Position numbers and translations under genes: made by a program. A stretch of 37,437 nt of DNA, taken from NCBI GenBank assembly GCA_964385185.1, contig CAYLOA010000010.1, positions 1-37,437 on the forward strand. Reading direction: 5' to 3'. Shown here one piece after another: positions 9,987 through 37,437 of the stretch (its first letter is position 1; each line of letters opens with the position of its first letter). This DNA is from an uncultured Methanosarcinales archaeon (GTDB taxonomy: Archaea > Nanobdellota > Nanobdellia > Woesearchaeales > CALCXY01). The notes beneath the pieces were generated by a model. The model was not told the origin of the DNA. It searched no databases and was given only the letters and a program-made list of their open reading frames with translations.

Positions 9987-10043
9987 GTTCTATTTTTACA
10001 TTAAACAAAAACATTTATAAAGGACCTCGGGCTTCTCAAATAT

Positions 10044-10232
10044 ATGGGAAGAATTAAAACTCAATTGGTAAAGAGAATAACTGAAGAATTACTTAAGAAT
10101 CACGGTGACTCTTTTAAGACTGAATTTGAAGAGAATAAAAAATTAGTGACTGAACTAGCAGATATACCTTCTAAGAAACATAGAAACACTATAGCTGGCT
10201 ATGTAACTAGAAAGGTTAAAGCTAAGGCTTAA
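10044..10232 (+). CDS. rps17e: 30S ribosomal protein S17e
   Basis: MGRIKT...FEENKK...SKKHRNTIAGYVTR. Confidence 0.97.
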   Translation: MGRIKTQLVKRITEELLKNHGDSFKTEFEENKKLVTELADIPSKKHRNTIAGYVTRKVKAKA

Positions 10233-13394: not shown

Positions 13395-13523
13395 AAAGTA
13401 AAGGTAATGGCTCGCTCAGCGACCCAACTCTCACGGCGCCTCATTAAAGTAGCGCCGTGAGTATAGTCATTTTTTCCAGCCATCACTACTGTGCCCTGTG
13501 GGCACCAGTAGTAGTGGTGGCTG
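13395..13523 (-). ncRNA. Unrecognised structured element, copy A
   Basis: Minus strand: CAGCCACCACTAC-TACTG-GTGCCC-ACA-GGGCAC-A-GTAGTGATGGCTG, then CTCACGGCGC/GCGCCGTGAG, then AGTTGGGTCGC-TGA-GCGAGCCA, then TTTACTTTT; covaries with copies B and C. Confidence 0.7.
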
Positions 13524-22024: not shown

Positions 22025-22159
22025 GTGGAGATGCCGGAGTGGCCAAACGGGATAGATTGTTCCAAGAAATTGGATAAGTCCTAGCTTAGGTCGCCCAGGT
22101 GTGGGCGTAAGGTACCTATTGGCTTAGTGTCTACGGGAGTTCGAATCTTCCTCTCCACA
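22025..22159 (+). tRNA. tRNA-Leu(TAG) with two introns (22056-22083 at 30/31; 22091-22113 at 37/38)
   Basis: Acceptor GTGGAGA/TCTCCAC+A and long variable arm; removing both introns gives ATAGG-CTTAGGA-CCTAT; both junction pairs form bulge-helix-bulge motifs. Confidence 0.9.
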
Positions 22160-22204
22160 TCATTTTTCTTTTAATTTTTGTAGATCTGGAATAGTTGATG
22201 GCTG

Positions 22205-22320
22205 AGTCACCACTACTACCGGCATGCACAGCATGCAGTAGTGGTGATTGTGTCTTACTCTGAGGGCTCGCAGTCGTAAGACTGCGAGAGTTGGCACTCT
22301 GTGAGTGCCATTTTACTTTT
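22205..22320 (+). ncRNA. Unrecognised structured element, copy B
   Basis: AGTCACCACTAC-TACCG-GCATGC-ACA-GCATGC-A-GTAGTGGTGATT, then CTCGCAGTC-GTAA-GACTGCGAG, then AGTTGGCACTC-TGT-GAGTGCCA, then TTTTACTTTT. Confidence 0.72.
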
Positions 22321-22657
22321 ACTTACAGTGTTTTTAAGAAAATAGAACAAAAATAACTCACTTTTACCTAATGCCTAACTTAAATCTGTGATAGTTGGCT
22401 CATTTGCCTCAAAATACCCCTATTTTTGGGCTAAATGAGCACTCTTTATCAGATATATTATATAGTTGTAAAATTATACAGAAATACCGTAAAATGGAGC
22501 TAAAAATGAGTGTTTTTAAGAGGAGAACAATCATCCACAATAAACCGTGTGATGAAAATAAACTACTTAGTAGTGATAAAGTACTGAAGTTGTTGAATTC
22601 TAATAGTACAAGGCTTGTAGAGCAAAATACACCATATAATGGAGATAGTGCTTACGA

Positions 22658-22776
22658 AACCTTTATAAGTCAGTAGTTAACAAAGTAGTAGAATCAGCTC
22701 TCTCGCTGAACTTAGAGGCAAAACCCTAAGGAGAGCAGCTAGATAATAATAATCGAACAGACACGGAGGTGTTTAG
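22658..22776 (+). promoter_or_regulatory. S-layer gene promoter and structured 5' UTR of about 80 nt
   Basis: AACCTTTATAAG box; hairpin 22696-22740; SD GGAGGTG at 22765-22771. Confidence 0.65.
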
Positions 22777-25416
22777 ATGAAAATAAGGAAAGCAATTAAG
22801 AAGATTGTTGCATTGGGAACTGGCCTATCAATGGTTGGAGCAACTATGCTTGGAGCTAGCGCGGCTTCAGGACTAAACGAATACCCTAACCCGTTTATCA
22901 AGAATGGTGTGTTTAACGGCATTATCGTTTTTGGTGACACAGCAGCTGCATCAGATGTTGCAGGAGCTGTAGATATTGCAACTACCCTACAATTTCAAGC
23001 AAAAGTTGATGTACCTGTAGGTTCTGGAAGCAGTGTTAATGTTGCTGTTGCAGGAGATGCTTATCAGGTCTCAGATGGATCCGATATCCTAGAAATAGGA
23101 GAGACTCTATACAACGTAACAGAAGTTGTAACAAAGGATGACTTGACTGTTTTAGCTAGTGGAACACTAGATAATTCACAAGGAAGCTTTGACTACAATC
23201 AATACTTGAAGTTCAATGAAACTGCTGAGCAGTATGTTGACTTCGCTATCGACGATGACGACGATGAAGATATCCCAGCGGATTATCTATACATTAAGTC
23301 AGGTCATGATATCTTTCAGTATGAACTTGAGTTCCAAGAACCTGCTGAGTCAGATGTTACTGATGCCGATGGAAATTCAGCTACCAATGGTGGAAAACTT
23401 TATGACTTCGAAGATGAAGATCTTTGGATAATGGGTAAAAAGTTTACCATAACAAAAGCTGAAAGAGCTGGTTCTGCAAAGAACAACACTAAATTAACAT
23501 TATTTGGTGGAGACGTTTCAGACACTCTAGAAGAGGGACAAACTAAGACCTATTCCATTGAAGGAAAGGACTATGAAGTTACTGCCCTGATCATTGATGA
23601 TACAACTTCAACGGCTTCCGTTAAGTTAAAAATCAATGGTGAAGTTACAAGAAAACTTCTAGAAGATCAAACTGATAAACTATCAGATGGTTTAGAAGTT
23701 GGTATTCGAAACCTACTTGGAAACGAGGCAGGAGACGTTACACAAGATCTTGTAGAGTTTTACTTAGGTGTTGACGAAATCATCATTACAGACACTGACA
23801 TCGTAAGAAGCGGTGGTGGAAGTCTGGATGTTAGAGATGAATCAATCTCCGACGCTGATGTTGAAATTGTTGGTACAGACGATAACACAAAAGTTAAGAT
23901 CAGTAAGATCAGAATTAGACTGGCTGCTGATGACGATATTTATATCGGAGAAGGAAAAGGAGCACAAGAACAGTTGGATGATCCAGAAGGATTTTTCACT
24001 GGAAACTTTGACCTTGAATTCCATGGTATAAGTGTTGGTGAAGCGTCTAAAATCCACTTGAACAATGCAGGAGATAGACAGTATAAGCTATCCTTCTCAA
24101 ATCGAGATGGAACAGAGTATGATTTCCCGTTAGTTTCCATTATCTCCTCAGGAGAGAATAGAATGGGAGACGATTCTGGTAGACGAGACTTGATCTTCTC
24201 AGAGAACCAATCTGGTCACAATTTGGCTTTATTGGCTTATCCGATTGAAGACGAGGATACGTTCATCGTTAACGACAACAAAGCTCTTGGTGTTCGACAA
24301 ACTGGATTCACACACGTCCTTCAATATAAGGATCAGGATTCAACGAACAATGTTCTTAAGTTTAAGGACAAAGGAACTGGAGACAACATCGAGGTATCTT
24401 ATACCACTGTTGGTGCTACATCTGACGCTCAGATTATCATCGGTGGAAAAGAGTTTAAGGTACTATTAAGTGCTGATACAGATGATGCAAACATCACTGT
24501 AGACCTTGATGGAGACGGATCCGTTCAAGCAGGAGACACACCATTTATCGTTACAAAGGGCGGTGTGTACATGAACTTAACAACTAACGGTAGCTGTTTC
24601 GTTGCATGTACAACAGGAAATATTATGAATATTTCCTTGTTTGCTGACTCAGACGATATTGATGATGGTTCAGAAGAAGAGGTTTTAGTTGTACCTATTA
24701 CGGTAAGCTCAAGCCCTGAACTTGATATCGGAACTGTTGATTACTTTGCAGTTGATCTTAAGAGCGGAAGTGCAAGAATTGCATCCTTATCAGGATATGC
24801 AAACCACTTTCAATCTGGTCTACACAAAGTTGGTTCAACTGACGATAGACAAGAAAGAACCACATACGGTATTTTGGTTGAACAACTTGTGGACACAAAC
24901 GGTCCAGACGAGCTAACTTTTAGTGTACCAGACGGTCAAGCTGAAGCATTGGTATTCTTTACCGCAAATGCACCAGCTATTACCAAAACGTCCACTGAAG
25001 GCGGAAGCGCAGTTAGCGCTCAAGTTACACCAATCGCACTTGGTACTGCAAAACTTGCATCAGAAGTTTCTGACGTTAAAGGTCAGAATGCTATTGTTGT
25101 AGGAGGACCATGTGTAAACACAGCTGCTGCTACCTTACTTGGTAACCCATCTGATTGTACATCAGGGTTCAATGAAGGAAAAGCTACTGTTAAGCTATGG
25201 GAGCATACAAACGGAAACGTTGCAATGCTTATCGCTGGTTTCAGCGCGCTTGACACAAGAAGAGCTGCTAGAGTTGTAGCTGAGGGAACGAAGCTTGCAG
25301 ATCTAGACGATGGTGTAATGGAAGTTGAAGTCGCAGGTACAACCTTGACTGAAGCAACTGTTAGTGTACCAGCTCCAGTAGCTGCTGCACCTGCTGAAGA
25401 AGCAGACGCTGAATAG
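22777..25416 (+). CDS. S-layer protein (Methanococcales/Thermococcales-like S-layer N/C domains)
   Basis: IKKIVALGTG..MVGAT signal, YPNPFIKNG..IIVFGDTAAASDV..A.DI, NAIVVGGPCVN; acidic; strong SD and T-rich terminator. Confidence 0.9.
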   Translation: MKIRKAIKKIVALGTGLSMVGATMLGASAASGLNEYPNPFIKNGVFNGIIVFGDTAAASDVAGAVDIATTLQFQAKVDVPVGSGSSVNVAVAGDAYQVSDGSDILEIGETLYNVTEVVTKDDLTVLASGTLDNSQGSFDYNQYLKFNETAEQYVDFAIDDDDDEDIPADYLYIKSGHDIFQYELEFQEPAESDVTDADGNSATNGGKLYDFEDEDLWIMGKKFTITKAERAGSAKNNTKLTLFGGDVSDTLEEGQTKTYSIEGKDYEVTALIIDDTTSTASVKLKINGEVTRKLLEDQTDKLSDGLEVGIRNLLGNEAGDVTQDLVEFYLGVDEIIITDTDIVRSGGGSLDVRDESISDADVEIVGTDDNTKVKISKIRIRLAADDDIYIGEGKGAQEQLDDPEGFFTGNFDLEFHGISVGEASKIHLNNAGDRQYKLSFSNRDGTEYDFPLVSIISSGENRMGDDSGRRDLIFSENQSGHNLALLAYPIEDEDTFIVNDNKALGVRQTGFTHVLQYKDQDSTNNVLKFKDKGTGDNIEVSYTTVGATSDAQIIIGGKEFKVLLSADTDDANITVDLDGDGSVQAGDTPFIVTKGGVYMNLTTNGSCFVACTTGNIMNISLFADSDDIDDGSEEEVLVVPITVSSSPELDIGTVDYFAVDLKSGSARIASLSGYANHFQSGLHKVGSTDDRQERTTYGILVEQLVDTNGPDELTFSVPDGQAEALVFFTANAPAITKTSTEGGSAVSAQVTPIALGTAKLASEVSDVKGQNAIVVGGPCVNTAAATLLGNPSDCTSGFNEGKATVKLWEHTNGNVAMLIAGFSALDTRRAARVVAEGTKLADLDDGVMEVEVAGTTLTEATVSVPAPVAAAPAEEADAE

Positions 25417-30875: not shown

Positions 30876-30913
30876 GCATAACATTTATAAAGAGTTTAGG
30901 ACTTCTATAAGCT

Positions 30914-31225
30914 ATGAAAATACCTAAAATCATGAAGAGATTGTGTCCTAAGTGTAGAAAGCACACTGAGCAAAAGGTAACACAAGCTAAGAATAGAACA
31001 CCTGGATCCGCACGACCTATGGGACGATATTCTAAAGCTAGAACAGGCTTTGGTAAAGGACATGGAAATCTAGGAAGATATGGTTCTAAACCTCCTGTTG
31101 GACGATGGAAGATGACAGGTGCTAAAGGTTCTAAAAAGATGGATTTACGATACGAATGTAAAGAATGTAAGAAAATCTCTGTTCAAAAGAAAGGTAAAAG
31201 AGCAAAGAAAGTTGAATTTAAGTAA
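30914..31225 (+). CDS. rpl44e: 50S ribosomal protein L44e
   Basis: MKIPK..KRLCPKCRKHT...SKKMDLRYECKECKK. Confidence 0.95.
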   Translation: MKIPKIMKRLCPKCRKHTEQKVTQAKNRTPGSARPMGRYSKARTGFGKGHGNLGRYGSKPPVGRWKMTGAKGSKKMDLRYECKECKKISVQKKGKRAKKVEFK

Positions 31226-32823: not shown

Positions 32824-32971
32824 AGACAGCACCACCACCGGCACCCACAGGGTGCAGTGGTGCTGTCTGATACAATGCCCACTGGGCGTTGCCCTTACAT
32901 TTCCAGCTACTGGTCTGGAAATGTAGATGGGCTGGCTCACTGTGTGAGCCTGCAAGCTCAGTGGGATTGTA
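32824..32971 (+). ncRNA. Unrecognised structured element, copy C (extended, multibranch)
   Basis: AGACAGCACCAC-CACCG-GCACCC-ACA-GGGTGC-A-GTGGTGCTGTCT; enclosing stem 32871-32892/32952-32971 around TACATTTCCAG/CTGGAAATGTA and GGCTGGCTCAC-TGT-GTGAGCC. Confidence 0.7.
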
Positions 32972-33043
32972 GTAAAATTAATGGTAAAATGCAAAAGAAC
33001 TATGTAGAAACATTTATAAAGCCCCTAACACTCCACAACTATT

Positions 33044-33223
33044 ATGAAAGAAGAACCAGACAGCAAATTTATCAAAGTACGTTGTCCAAAATGCAAAAAC
33101 GAACAGATCCTCTACGGAAAGGTTTCTACCCAAGTGAAATGTCTTGTCTGTGAAGAGCTCCTAGCAGAGCCAACTGGCGGAAAAAGCAAGGTCAAGGGCA
33201 GAGTCTTAGAGGTTTTAGAGTAA
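33044..33223 (+). CDS. rps27e: 30S ribosomal protein S27e (not in ORF track)
   Basis: PDSKFIKVRCPKCKNEQILYGKVSTQVKCLVCEELLAEPTGGKS; TAATG overlap with the aIF-2 alpha gene. Confidence 0.96.
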   Translation: MKEEPDSKFIKVRCPKCKNEQILYGKVSTQVKCLVCEELLAEPTGGKSKVKGRVLEVLE

Positions 33224-35007: not shown

Positions 35008-35050
35008 GATAGAAATATTTATATATCATTATTCTCAGAAAGTGGTTGGG

Positions 35051-37437
35051 ATGGTAAAAAAGTATTTTTTAGTATTATTTTTGGTTCTAGTTTTTATTGG
35101 ATGTGCATCTAACGGAGCATTACCTCCAACACCAGGCGATCCAGGAGTGAGTCAATCTTCTACCGGCGGCCTGATTGGGTTTGCATTTAGAAATTTAAAC
35201 TTTAATGAGAAGTCATTAGAACAGTTTAGTCCACCTATTGATCCATTTGATAATGACAGAATTATTTATTCTATTTTCGATGAGATTGTTATAGTTGAAG
35301 AAGATGAAAATGTAAGACAATATGCTACTTTTGGTCTTGATGCACTTTCAGAATTTAGTATTGTTCAAGATAATGAAGCCATAGAAAAATCTGCTGATTT
35401 ACCTATTGAGGTACCTATTCCTTCAATTCCTGAACCTGTTGGCAATAGTCCTTTTCAACTTGTTGATGCCTATCACCCTGGAGGATATATATGGGGAACT
35501 GCATTTTATCTAAATTATGAAACGTTTAGATGGGAGAAGATTAATCTGAATGGTAACCGTGTTGGAAATACAAATTGGATTGAAGAATCAAGCAATGGAG
35601 AATATCGTTTACCTGCGGAAACACTCCAAGAAGGAGAAAATTTTATTATTGCTTATAGTTGTAAAAAATATGATGATGAATGGAAATGTGGTTGTAAAGA
35701 TACAGGAGATTCATGTAATAGATGGATGCTACAATCTTTTAATGTTATTAAAAAAGAGTTACCTCCTGGACCTAATGACCCTCCTGAGTTTGCTGATAAT
35801 AGGATAATTACAGAGGATATACGTGGATGGGAGTATGAAGATTCCGATACAGACGACGATTGTATCTCTGACCTTATGCCTGATTGTAAAATAAGTGTGG
35901 GCCTATATGATCATAGTGATTTGGATGGAAATGCTATTGTGGCATTTGGTAACGGTAAGGAAGGGGCTACAAATACTGAAATTATTGATGAGTTTACAAG
36001 AGTATATGAAGAGTATGGTCTTTCAGATTTCTTTGGTGTATTTCCTGTATCTATTGATGACCACCAACTCTACAGAATGGTGAGTCCAGACACAGGAAGG
36101 GAAGTTATTGAATTTTATCTGTGGCATAGTGGGACTAATTATATAGCAGTTGGGGCAGGATATGAAGATAAGTATGGGGATCAGGAGCATTTTGCAACAT
36201 TATTCCTTGCTGCTGAGTACCTGAAAAAATTTCCATCTGATTTAGAACATGAGTATATTGCTACTTGTTATGATAGGAATAGGGTGCAATATTATAGGGG
36301 AGATGAAGATACTAATCGAGAATATATTCCTGGTACTGTAGAGGGCAACCATATTCTGGAGAGGAATGGGGAAGTTATCGATTTCCAACATATTTCGAAG
36401 TTTGACGATTATTGTGATTCTGATCAAGAATTGTACGATCAAGCATGTTCAGGATCACTAAAAGTTGAAAATACTTATGGATGTGATTGTGTCAATGGGT
36501 ATTGTATCCATCCATTAGTTGTCCAGGAGATAGAAGGAGCAAAACTTGTAAGTATAGGTCAAGACAACGATATTTATCTTCCAAATAATGATCCCGTTGA
36601 TGGGTATTGGGCAAACTATAGACAAGATGTTCATTTTAGTGAAAATGGTGATGTTCAGACTTTGATTCAAAAACATGAGAAGGAGATTACAAGTTCTGAG
36701 TTTCAGGAATTTATGGAAAATGAATTTGATGATTTTTCAATAGAGACTAATCAAGGAAACAGTTTCTACGTTGTAGATATAAGAAATGATATAATATTGT
36801 TATGGTATTCAGGCGATGTGGCAATTGCAATTGTTACTCAAGAAATTGGAAGTGATGATACATTTGAAGCTGTTATTGAAAGCTATGTAGATAGATATCC
36901 TAGTGATGTTGAAGGTGGAGATAATGAGCTTAAAGATATTTGTGAAAATGTAGTTCCTGTTGAGGAGAGAGATCGGTGTTATATTGAGGGTGTTCTTAAT
37001 GGTGATTATAAACAGTGTCAAAAGATTGAGAATCCTAATTTGAAGGAAAATTGTCAAGCTATTCTTGTGGACAATTGTGGAAGAATAAATGATCCTAAGG
37101 AGAGAGATAGTTGTTTTATGGAGCTGATTGTTAATGGAGATTTTAGTGAGTGTCAAGTGATTGAGAATCCTTATATGAAGGAAAATTGTCAAGATATTCT
37201 TGCAAAAAATTGTGGAGAAATATATGATCCTAAGGAGAGAGATAGTTGTTTTATGGAGCTGATTGTTAATGGAGATTTNNNNNNNNNNNNNNNNNNNNNN
37301 NNNNNNNNNNNNNNNNNNNNNNNNNNNNNNNNNNNNNNNNNNNNNNNNNNNNNNNNNNNNNNNNNNNNNNNNNNNNNNTAGTGAGTGTCAAGTGATTGAG
37401 AATCCTAATATGAAGGAGGATTGTCAATATATTCTTG
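35051..37437 (+). CDS. Large acidic Cys-rich putative lipoprotein with 45-aa C-terminal repeats (partial; spans gap 37279-37378)
   Basis: MVKKYFLVLFLVLVFIG-C signal; repeat sequence resumes after the N gap. Confidence 0.8.
36965..37437 (+). repeat. 135-bp coding tandem repeat (at least 3 units)
   Basis: GATCCTAAGGAGAGAGATAGTTG at 37091 and 37226; unit ERDSCFMELIVNGDFSECQVIENPYMKENCQDILAKNCGEIYDPK. Confidence 0.9.

Follow-up and report, generated by a model that had tools for sequence, protein, structure and literature searches.

What is the hairpin-rich element that lies just downstream of a tRNA-Leu gene in the DNA analyzed here (a stretch of 37,437 nucleotides, hereafter the window), and does it act as an RNA? 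An earlier note on this DNA took the GNRA loop of the element and its position on the flank of a tRNA gene as support for a function at the RNA level, in the orientation in which a hairpin with an ACA loop comes first. The host is a DPANN archaeon (Nanobdellota) with a genome of 1.30 Mb (85 contigs, 35.5% GC, rated 100% complete). This assignment follows from archaeal genes such as those of aIF2-alpha, S8e, LSM and an S-layer protein, and from the Atlas cluster of its aIF2-alpha protein, in which Nanobdellota predominate. Searches of this genome identify the element, copy B, as a real member of a repeat family whose structure is conserved.

The description of copy B given in the earlier note agrees with the sequence in every structural detail. 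The element starts 46 nt past the 3' end of the tRNA gene, at 22205 as against 22159, on the same strand and beyond several T-tracts. It consists of a long bulged hairpin (P1), a linker, a perfect 9-bp stem capped by GTAA (P2) and a perfect 8-bp stem with a TGT loop (P3), the last directly followed by TTTTACTTTT (Table 1). In copy B, P1 is built of 6 bp, a CAC bulge, 6 bp, a CG/A 2x1 internal loop and a 6-bp variable stem that closes on an ACA loop. The computed RNA fold of positions 22195-22330 supports all three hairpins, with an energy of -63 kcal/mol (z -6.3, with none of 200 shuffles folding equally well), and the opposite strand folds almost equally (-53.1 kcal/mol, z -5.6). Copy B forms a GC island, with a GC fraction of 0.55 (22200-22299) vs 0.29-0.34 in the flanks.

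Table 1. Coordinates of copy B, its tRNA neighbor and related elements. Positions are those of the window unless a contig (C) is given; G000 is the host genome, G001 a genome of the same genus and L060 a metagenome stretch from a relative.
Feature	Position	Strand	Remarks
tRNA-Leu(UAG) gene, two introns	22025..22159	+	Rfam tRNA 33.3 bits; intron-less ortholog in G001
T-tracts between tRNA gene and element	22163..22179	+	TTTTT 22163-22167, TTTT 22169-22172, TTTTT 22175-22179
P1, long bulged hairpin	22205..22249	+	model R2, score 64 bits, E 1.1e-16
P1-P2 linker	22250..22266	+	conserved in part, in some copies only
P2	22267..22288	+	9-bp stem, GTAA loop; sequence near-invariant across the family
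AGT, piece of the invariant GAGAGT junction P2/P3	22289..22291	+	
P3	22292..22310	+	8-bp stem, TGT loop; core hairpin, reversed relative to the inner hairpin of P1
Pyrimidine/T-rich tail	22311..22335	+	TTTTACTTTT (22311-22320), then TTTTT 22331-22335
Copy A, P1+P2+P3 composite	13400..13522	-	P2 with a long AT-rich loop
Copy C, P1 module	32824..32868	+	
Copy C, J module (three-way junction)	32881..32962	+	
K copies	G000 C39:4558-4663, C3:34553-34650, C8:30025-30110; L060:848-898		
Mini-hairpins, examples	C19:9755-9775, C39, C9:4853-4870		
G001 hairpins, examples	C62:5304-5347, C98:11231-11275, C98:9821-9868, 6 more		

Two other readings of the same bases were considered and set aside. A small open reading frame on the reverse strand, running over P3 and P2 (M-A/E-L-T-E-C...), does not encode a conserved peptide, and it was rejected because the P3 codons shift with the compensatory stem variants. 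The motifs of a C/D-box reading (UGAUGG...CUGA) are missing from the other copies. Downstream of copy B lie a 93-aa ORF (22395-22676) that matches no Pfam family and, starting 457 nt from the element, the gene of an S-layer-like protein of 879 aa (22777-25416, + strand; PF05124, E 1e-14). DNA contigs from four runs contained no joint that omits copy B, no empty site and no polymorphism; these contigs reach 22294 and resume at 22283, breaking at repeats, and since contigs lose rare variants the absence of an empty site there is no proof of fixation.

The upstream gene was correctly named in the earlier note. Default ARAGORN and an Rfam search of the whole window both missed it, and a local Rfam search recovered a tRNA with a 55-nt insert. 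Its identity as tRNA-Leu(UAG) was assigned by alignment to the ortholog in the same-genus genome G001, a tRNA-Leu(tag) of 84 nt without intron. The introns lie at about 22056-22083, in the 5' strand of the anticodon stem, and at about 22091-22113, the canonical 37/38 site. A Thr(tgt) call made by ARAGORN with introns enabled is an artefact, as the G001 ortholog indicates Leu, and a grid of ARAGORN runs over possible splice junctions returned many different tRNA calls for many junctions and is not independent evidence. According to ARAGORN with introns, intron-bearing tRNAs are numerous in this genome. Contigs of other organisms have 24 nt where the tRNA-Leu gene here has 58 nt. The T-tracts that follow the gene are presumably the termination signal of tRNA-Leu itself, as judged from archaeal termination in general.

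Iterated nhmmer searches starting from copy B yielded 39 non-overlapping loci in the host genome, to which 15 loci of a further module, J, were added. Merging gave a family of 50 loci that covers 3,906 bp on 30 contigs and occupies 49 of the 396 intergenic gaps of at least 80 nt, about one in eight. All 50 loci are intergenic once spurious ORF extensions are set aside. Covariance models found 25 copies of P1 (R2) and 25 of P2+P3 (R1); J, a three-way junction, is present in 15 copies and K, a nested module, in three. The modules are combined as a mosaic: P1 occurs in seven intact P1+P2+P3 composites, in four inverted doublets (eight copies), in two P1+J combinations and alone in eight cases. 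One further composite, in which P1 is disrupted by K, brings the composites to eight. P2P3 is found without an intact P1 in 17 copies. In all composites the ACA hairpin comes first and the TGT hairpin last, and all four P1 doublets are convergent, their paired units not being complementary to each other. The 17-nt core hairpin that forms the tip of P1 recurs in P3 and in one arm of J, there in reverse, with a TGT loop in place of ACA.

The three helices of the J module, which measures 80 nt, are a closing stem of 9 bp, a bulged hairpin of 16 bp whose TAATGG loop is conserved, and the core hairpin in its TGT form; taken alone, the module would resemble a novel structured RNA. K is a 51-nt module of two hairpins (TCTCAA..TTGAGA and TCTTGCGG..CCGCTAGA). 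It was found three times in the host genome and once in the relative L060, in each case at the ACA/TGT loop of a P1 or P3, either inside the loop or next to it. In three of these four the stem halves that K interrupts are mismatched. In several copies P2 is closely preceded, on its 5' side, by a mini-hairpin of the GC-GAA-GC type (GCGAAGC, GCAAAGC, GCGTAGC); GCGAAGC is an unusually stable DNA mini-hairpin.

Pairing is conserved throughout the family while the stem sequences vary. Among 22 aligned copies of P2P3, both sides have changed in a compensatory manner at 8 of 15 pairs. In P1 (24 copies), 91.4% of the cells are paired and two-sided cells number 75 vs 22.1 +/- 3.7 after shuffling, a value reached in none of 500 shuffles, with the reservation that these copies were selected by a perfect inner stem, so that this helix is circular evidence. 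For the nine of 15 J copies that were aligned, 97.8% of the cells are paired and two-sided changes occur in 19 of 32 pairs. The core motif GNNNNC-ACA/TGT-GNNNNC occurs 100 times genome-wide, and 57 of the occurrences, with 15 stem variants, are perfectly complementary. Three have a single mismatch, one of them (a G.T) in a family element, and the other 40 have 2-4 mismatches and are background-like; within the family, pairing of the core hairpin is thus perfect in 57 of 58. The genome has 195 perfect hairpins with a triloop and a stem of at least 7 bp, and in 36 of them the triloop is of the form C-ACA-G or C-TGT-G. Wobble pairs are rare (one G.T in 58 core hairpins, none in 330 P2P3 cells and six in 275 J cells). 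The conserved unpaired features comprise the loops, a bulged G, the CAC bulge and the GAGAGT junction. While the sequence of P2 hardly changes, the four central pairs of P3 are variable.

The placed loci show a preference for certain gaps: as judged from crude stop-to-stop ORFs, 48 of 49 lie in promoter-bearing gaps (22 divergent, 26 tandem) and one in a convergent gap vs 5.8 expected, a depletion that is borderline (chi-square p 0.10 over the three classes). A TATA-like box usually follows the element at a distance of some tens of bases, and from this and the gap types we conclude that the elements sit at promoters rather than at gene ends. Their neighbors are unrelated housekeeping genes (S-layer, aIF2a/S27e, RadA, RadB, RpoL, L21e, Kae1, RNase HII, aIF5A, transaldolase and others). 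Of 19 P2P3 loci tallied by eye, ten were in tandem gaps, six of these co-oriented with and four opposed to the genes.

Two further repeats were noted in the window. The motif AACATTTATAAAG recurs at 10010-10059, 30880-30929 and 33009-33058 (family D3); these copies look like archaeal BRE/TATA promoters, and the S27e start follows closely on the one at 33009. Tandem repeats of 135 nt, 75-93% alike, fill positions 36935-37437 up to the end of the window and fall within a 779-aa ORF (35042-37381) that looks like a repeat-domain protein.

We searched the host genome for enzymes that might handle such elements, and for known RNA families. The Y1/RAYT family (PF01797) gave no matches in this genome rated complete, whereas the control search was positive in 6 of 14 known genomes. 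No match to a GIY-YIG nuclease was obtained in the host genome, and the single weak match to RVT_1 proved to be a Trm5/TYW2 methyltransferase, so that no reverse transcriptase was found there. The genome contains three full-length tyrosine recombinases and two recombinase fragments, as well as a PD-(D/E)XK nuclease. The fragments (C6:15681-15758 and C11:12177-12365) lie in similar DNA, one of them about 400 nt after a tRNA-Val gene (C6:15200-15272), and are probably remnants of integrated elements. A weak match to the TnpB zinc-ribbon (PF07282; C30:1720-1851, 61-aa frame) scored 19.8 bits, below the cut-off. The sole DDE transposase (PF01609, C58:99-2022) is a 523-aa ORF on a 2.5 kb contig with imperfect terminal inverted repeats of about 44 nt; the ends of this element are unrelated to the hairpin family. 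No module matched an Rfam family. Ribozyme models gave no match at gathering or permissive thresholds, the best being Hovlinc with 13.1 bits vs a gathering score of 42.3, and the absence of any match to HDV-like or other Rfam ribozymes agrees with the view of the earlier note that copy B does not look like a theta ribozyme. As for C/D or H/ACA guide RNAs, the sole match (SNORD65, 13.1 bits) is a chance one. Integron attC arrays were not present, the loci being spread over 49 gaps among housekeeping genes.

The family is restricted to one lineage. P2P3 (R1) was found in none of about 60 further genomes from the order, among them that of the congener G001 (77% complete), and P1 (R2) gave only three weak matches, in one of about 40 other genomes. 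The exact P2 pattern was absent from a species-level genome collection and present in 22 metagenome stretches, of which 21 derive from the organism itself (at least 99.5% identity) and one from the relative L060 (about 73-77%). In L060 the element lies at the orthologous divergent gap; its P2 is identical, its P3 stem differs by compensatory changes and its P1 carries the K insert.

The congener G001 has an unrelated family of its own, whose hairpins have perfect stems of 17-18 bp, C-rich/G-rich at the tips, and a common loop that ends in GTAA. The corresponding C5...G5 pattern is found at eight loci in G001 and at none in the host genome. Four syntenic gaps are shared with G001, and in two of them, upstream of S27e/aIF2-alpha (the site of copy C) and between aIF5A and an M50 peptidase, a G001-type hairpin stands where the host genome has P1. 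Of the remaining two, one holds an unstructured GC-rich insert in G001 and the other is short and empty, lacking about 140 nt of flanking spacer as well. Given how few copies G001 has, shared occupancy at two of four sites is more than we would expect by chance, but the sites are few and were picked post hoc. Aligned flanks revealed no target-site duplication, and no clean empty site was seen.

Among known elements, those of the REP/BIME/REPIN type are similar in that they are short GC-rich extragenic palindromes present in tens of copies, form species-specific families and mosaics of few modules, arrange inverted units around a spacer, undergo compensatory stem changes and persist at orthologous sites. 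Species-specific REP families have been described in the part of the literature available to us (PMC3686654), and the available text of another study describes REP palindromes as bearing a conserved tag, GTAG or CGTC, at one end (PMC3733652). Here, the 3' arm of P1 starts with GTAG in about half of the copies; this GTAG lies inside the stem and is variable (GTTG, GTGG). The family differs from REP/BIME/REPIN elements in that its host is an archaeon in which no Y1 transposase gene was found, its doublet hairpins are each self-complementary and not mutually complementary, its P1 arms are assembled from NAC/GTN triplets and bear a bulge of one triplet, its modules include a three-way junction, and its loci favor promoter-bearing over convergent gaps. 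According to the accessible portion of one source, only the IS200-type subclass of TnpA is reported from Archaea, the REP-associated subclasses being known only from bacteria (PMC6006769), and the accessible text of a second states that REPINs were not detected in archaea (bioRxiv 10.1101/2021.07.10.451892).

MITEs resemble the family in being small, non-coding, dispersed and intergenic, with inverted terminal structures and nested insertions (as K). Unlike MITEs, the family shows no target-site duplication and has no parent insertion sequence, the ends of the sole DDE element being unrelated, and its stems are perfectly paired while the sequence varies, which simple decay of copies would not give. 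The insertion sequences IS1397 and ISKpn1 target REP loops. ISPpu9 is likewise inserted into REP sequences, according to the available part of its description (PMC8450116). The four independent cases of K in or beside the loop of a core hairpin are reminiscent of such insertions, except that K is a non-coding two-hairpin module without a transposase. With theta/HDV-like and other small self-cleaving RNAs near tRNAs, copy B shares the position of a structured element on a tRNA 3' flank; it differs from theta/HDV-like ribozymes in having no nested pseudoknot and no Rfam match, and 45 of the 50 family loci are away from tRNAs. The accessible portions of the literature on archaeal REP-, MITE- or stem-loop-type repeats contained no description of such a family in DPANN archaea.

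Copy B is thus a composite (P1+P2+P3 and tail) of a species-specific, modular family of GC-rich intergenic palindromes, REP/BIME-like. The explanation to which we incline, with modest confidence, is that its hairpins act as folded single strands and are recognized by a protein. These strands would preferably be DNA, exposed at replication or upstream of promoters, and the same folds would form in RNA if the elements were transcribed. A trans-acting protein would recognize the unpaired bases, namely the ACA/TGT loop, the bulged G, the CAC bulge and the GNRA loop, and would copy, recombine or homogenize the hairpins, so that the stems stay perfectly paired as their sequence drifts. Several signs in the sequence appear to favor action at the DNA level: both hairpin orientations within one element, no rule of orientation relative to genes, the scarcity of wobble pairs, the nested K module and the restriction to a lineage. 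Against a REP/BIME-like nature, no cognate enzyme, target-site duplication or clean empty site was found, and the avoidance of convergent gaps counts against selfish insertion, as such insertion is not expected to avoid these gaps.

The strand-specific features would also suit an RNA: the GNRA loops of P2, the T5 runs downstream of P3 and the junction bases of J. That the modules form a family of structured RNAs is possible, though not probable; they would be transcribed from their own promoters or within leaders, and would serve as protein-binding or stabilizing structures or as small RNAs, whose CCUCC-containing pyrimidine tail would pair with Shine-Dalgarno-like sequences. The heavy covariation, the conserved loops and junction bases, the three-way junction of J and the occurrence of GC-rich islands in an AT-rich genome are what such RNAs would present. 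To these can be added the GNRA loop in 16 of 22 aligned P2 copies (five others have AT-rich loops of 6-12 nt and one has GAAG), the T5 runs that occur in the 40 nt past P3 in 10 of 25 copies, vs a background of 16% (upstream, 0 of 25), and the pyrimidine-rich tail that follows P3 on the forward strand and often begins with CCTCC. For P2P3 (22 of 23) and J (13 of 15) the forward strand also gives the slightly more stable fold, but for P1 the reverse strand does; with differences of 1-2 kcal/mol, the computed folding energies are not decisive as to the strand. Set against an RNA are the near absence of wobble pairs despite many stem variants, an orientation unrelated to the neighboring genes, and the failure to find the family in the other genomes searched or in Rfam. 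No consistent promoter, in the form of a TATA-like box at a fixed distance, was seen by eye upstream of the eight composites. The sequence TTCTATAATA, which precedes three P2P3 copies by about 80 nt, was considered as a shared promoter and rejected, since at least at C24 it belongs to the upstream gene, as the conserved 3' end of that gene. A narrower proposal, and in our view a very improbable one, is an RNA tied to the 3' flank of tRNA-Leu, either processed together with the pre-tRNA or a new tRNA-associated self-cleaving RNA. The close spacing on the same strand and the stable hairpins with a GNRA loop would fit it, and five of 50 loci have a tRNA gene at a distance of 200 nt or less. This compares with about 2.5-2.8 expected (from 30 tRNA genes and the share of gaps that adjoin tRNAs), an enrichment of about two-fold that is not significant; the five arrangements all differ (upstream, downstream, divergent, between two tRNAs) and the other 45 loci have no tRNA nearby. 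Three T-tracts separate tRNA and element, no ribozyme was matched, and in G001 synteny breaks right after the orthologous tRNA-Leu gene, with no element there. The position of copy B beside tRNA-Leu is incidental. The argument of the earlier note for RNA-level function in the ACA-first orientation was not supported: adjacency to tRNAs is no more than chance, T-tracts intervene, every composite bears ACA and TGT hairpins on one strand, copies lie in either orientation relative to their neighbors, and not all P2 copies have the GNRA loop.

The elements could instead be DNA structures that serve the host, as cruciforms or as sites for chromatin or architectural proteins upstream of promoters, where they would buffer or insulate the negative supercoiling behind RNA polymerases; the sequence would then be free to change, as long as a hairpin persists at the site. 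We regard this as quite unlikely, although the near confinement to divergent and tandem gaps and the perfect Watson-Crick pairing of the core, which holds on both strands at once, would be in line with it, as would the occupied orthologous site in L060. The unrelated G001 hairpins at two of the four syntenic sites, in a genome with only eight matches to their pattern, could likewise indicate that a hairpin there serves the host. Cruciform extrusion, however, would require no conserved bulges, loops or three-way junction, one syntenic G001 site is empty and another has an unstructured insert, the comparison covers four sites picked post hoc, and the depletion of convergent gaps is borderline.

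A more far-reaching explanation can be put forward tentatively, as a possible though rather unlikely one: in Woesearchaeota-like archaea, REPIN-like hairpins may be kept for long periods at sites upstream of promoters while each species replaces the sequence of the whole family, the upkeep being due to an enzyme other than a Y1/HUH transposase. In effect, each hairpin would have one arm rewritten after the other, and this would account for the perfect pairing in 57 of 58 core hairpins despite 15 stem variants.

In the parts of the literature accessible to us, bacteria are the only hosts from which repeats of the REP/REPIN type, and the enzymes that go with them, have been described; here, a dense family of hairpins is found in a DPANN archaeon of 1.3 Mb in which no RAYT was detected. 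The family raises two questions, namely what maintains such elements in archaea and whether they serve the host. The organism has very little regulatory DNA, and since about one in eight of the larger gaps contains an element, in most cases shortly before the promoter of a core gene, the family may affect expression. For annotation, it follows that GC-rich islands of this kind should not be named novel tRNA-linked RNAs or ribozymes copy by copy. If it is true that the sites are long kept while their sequence is replaced per species, the family would represent a new kind of archaeal element that is conserved in structure only, either a vertically inherited replicator or a promoter insulator of the cruciform type.
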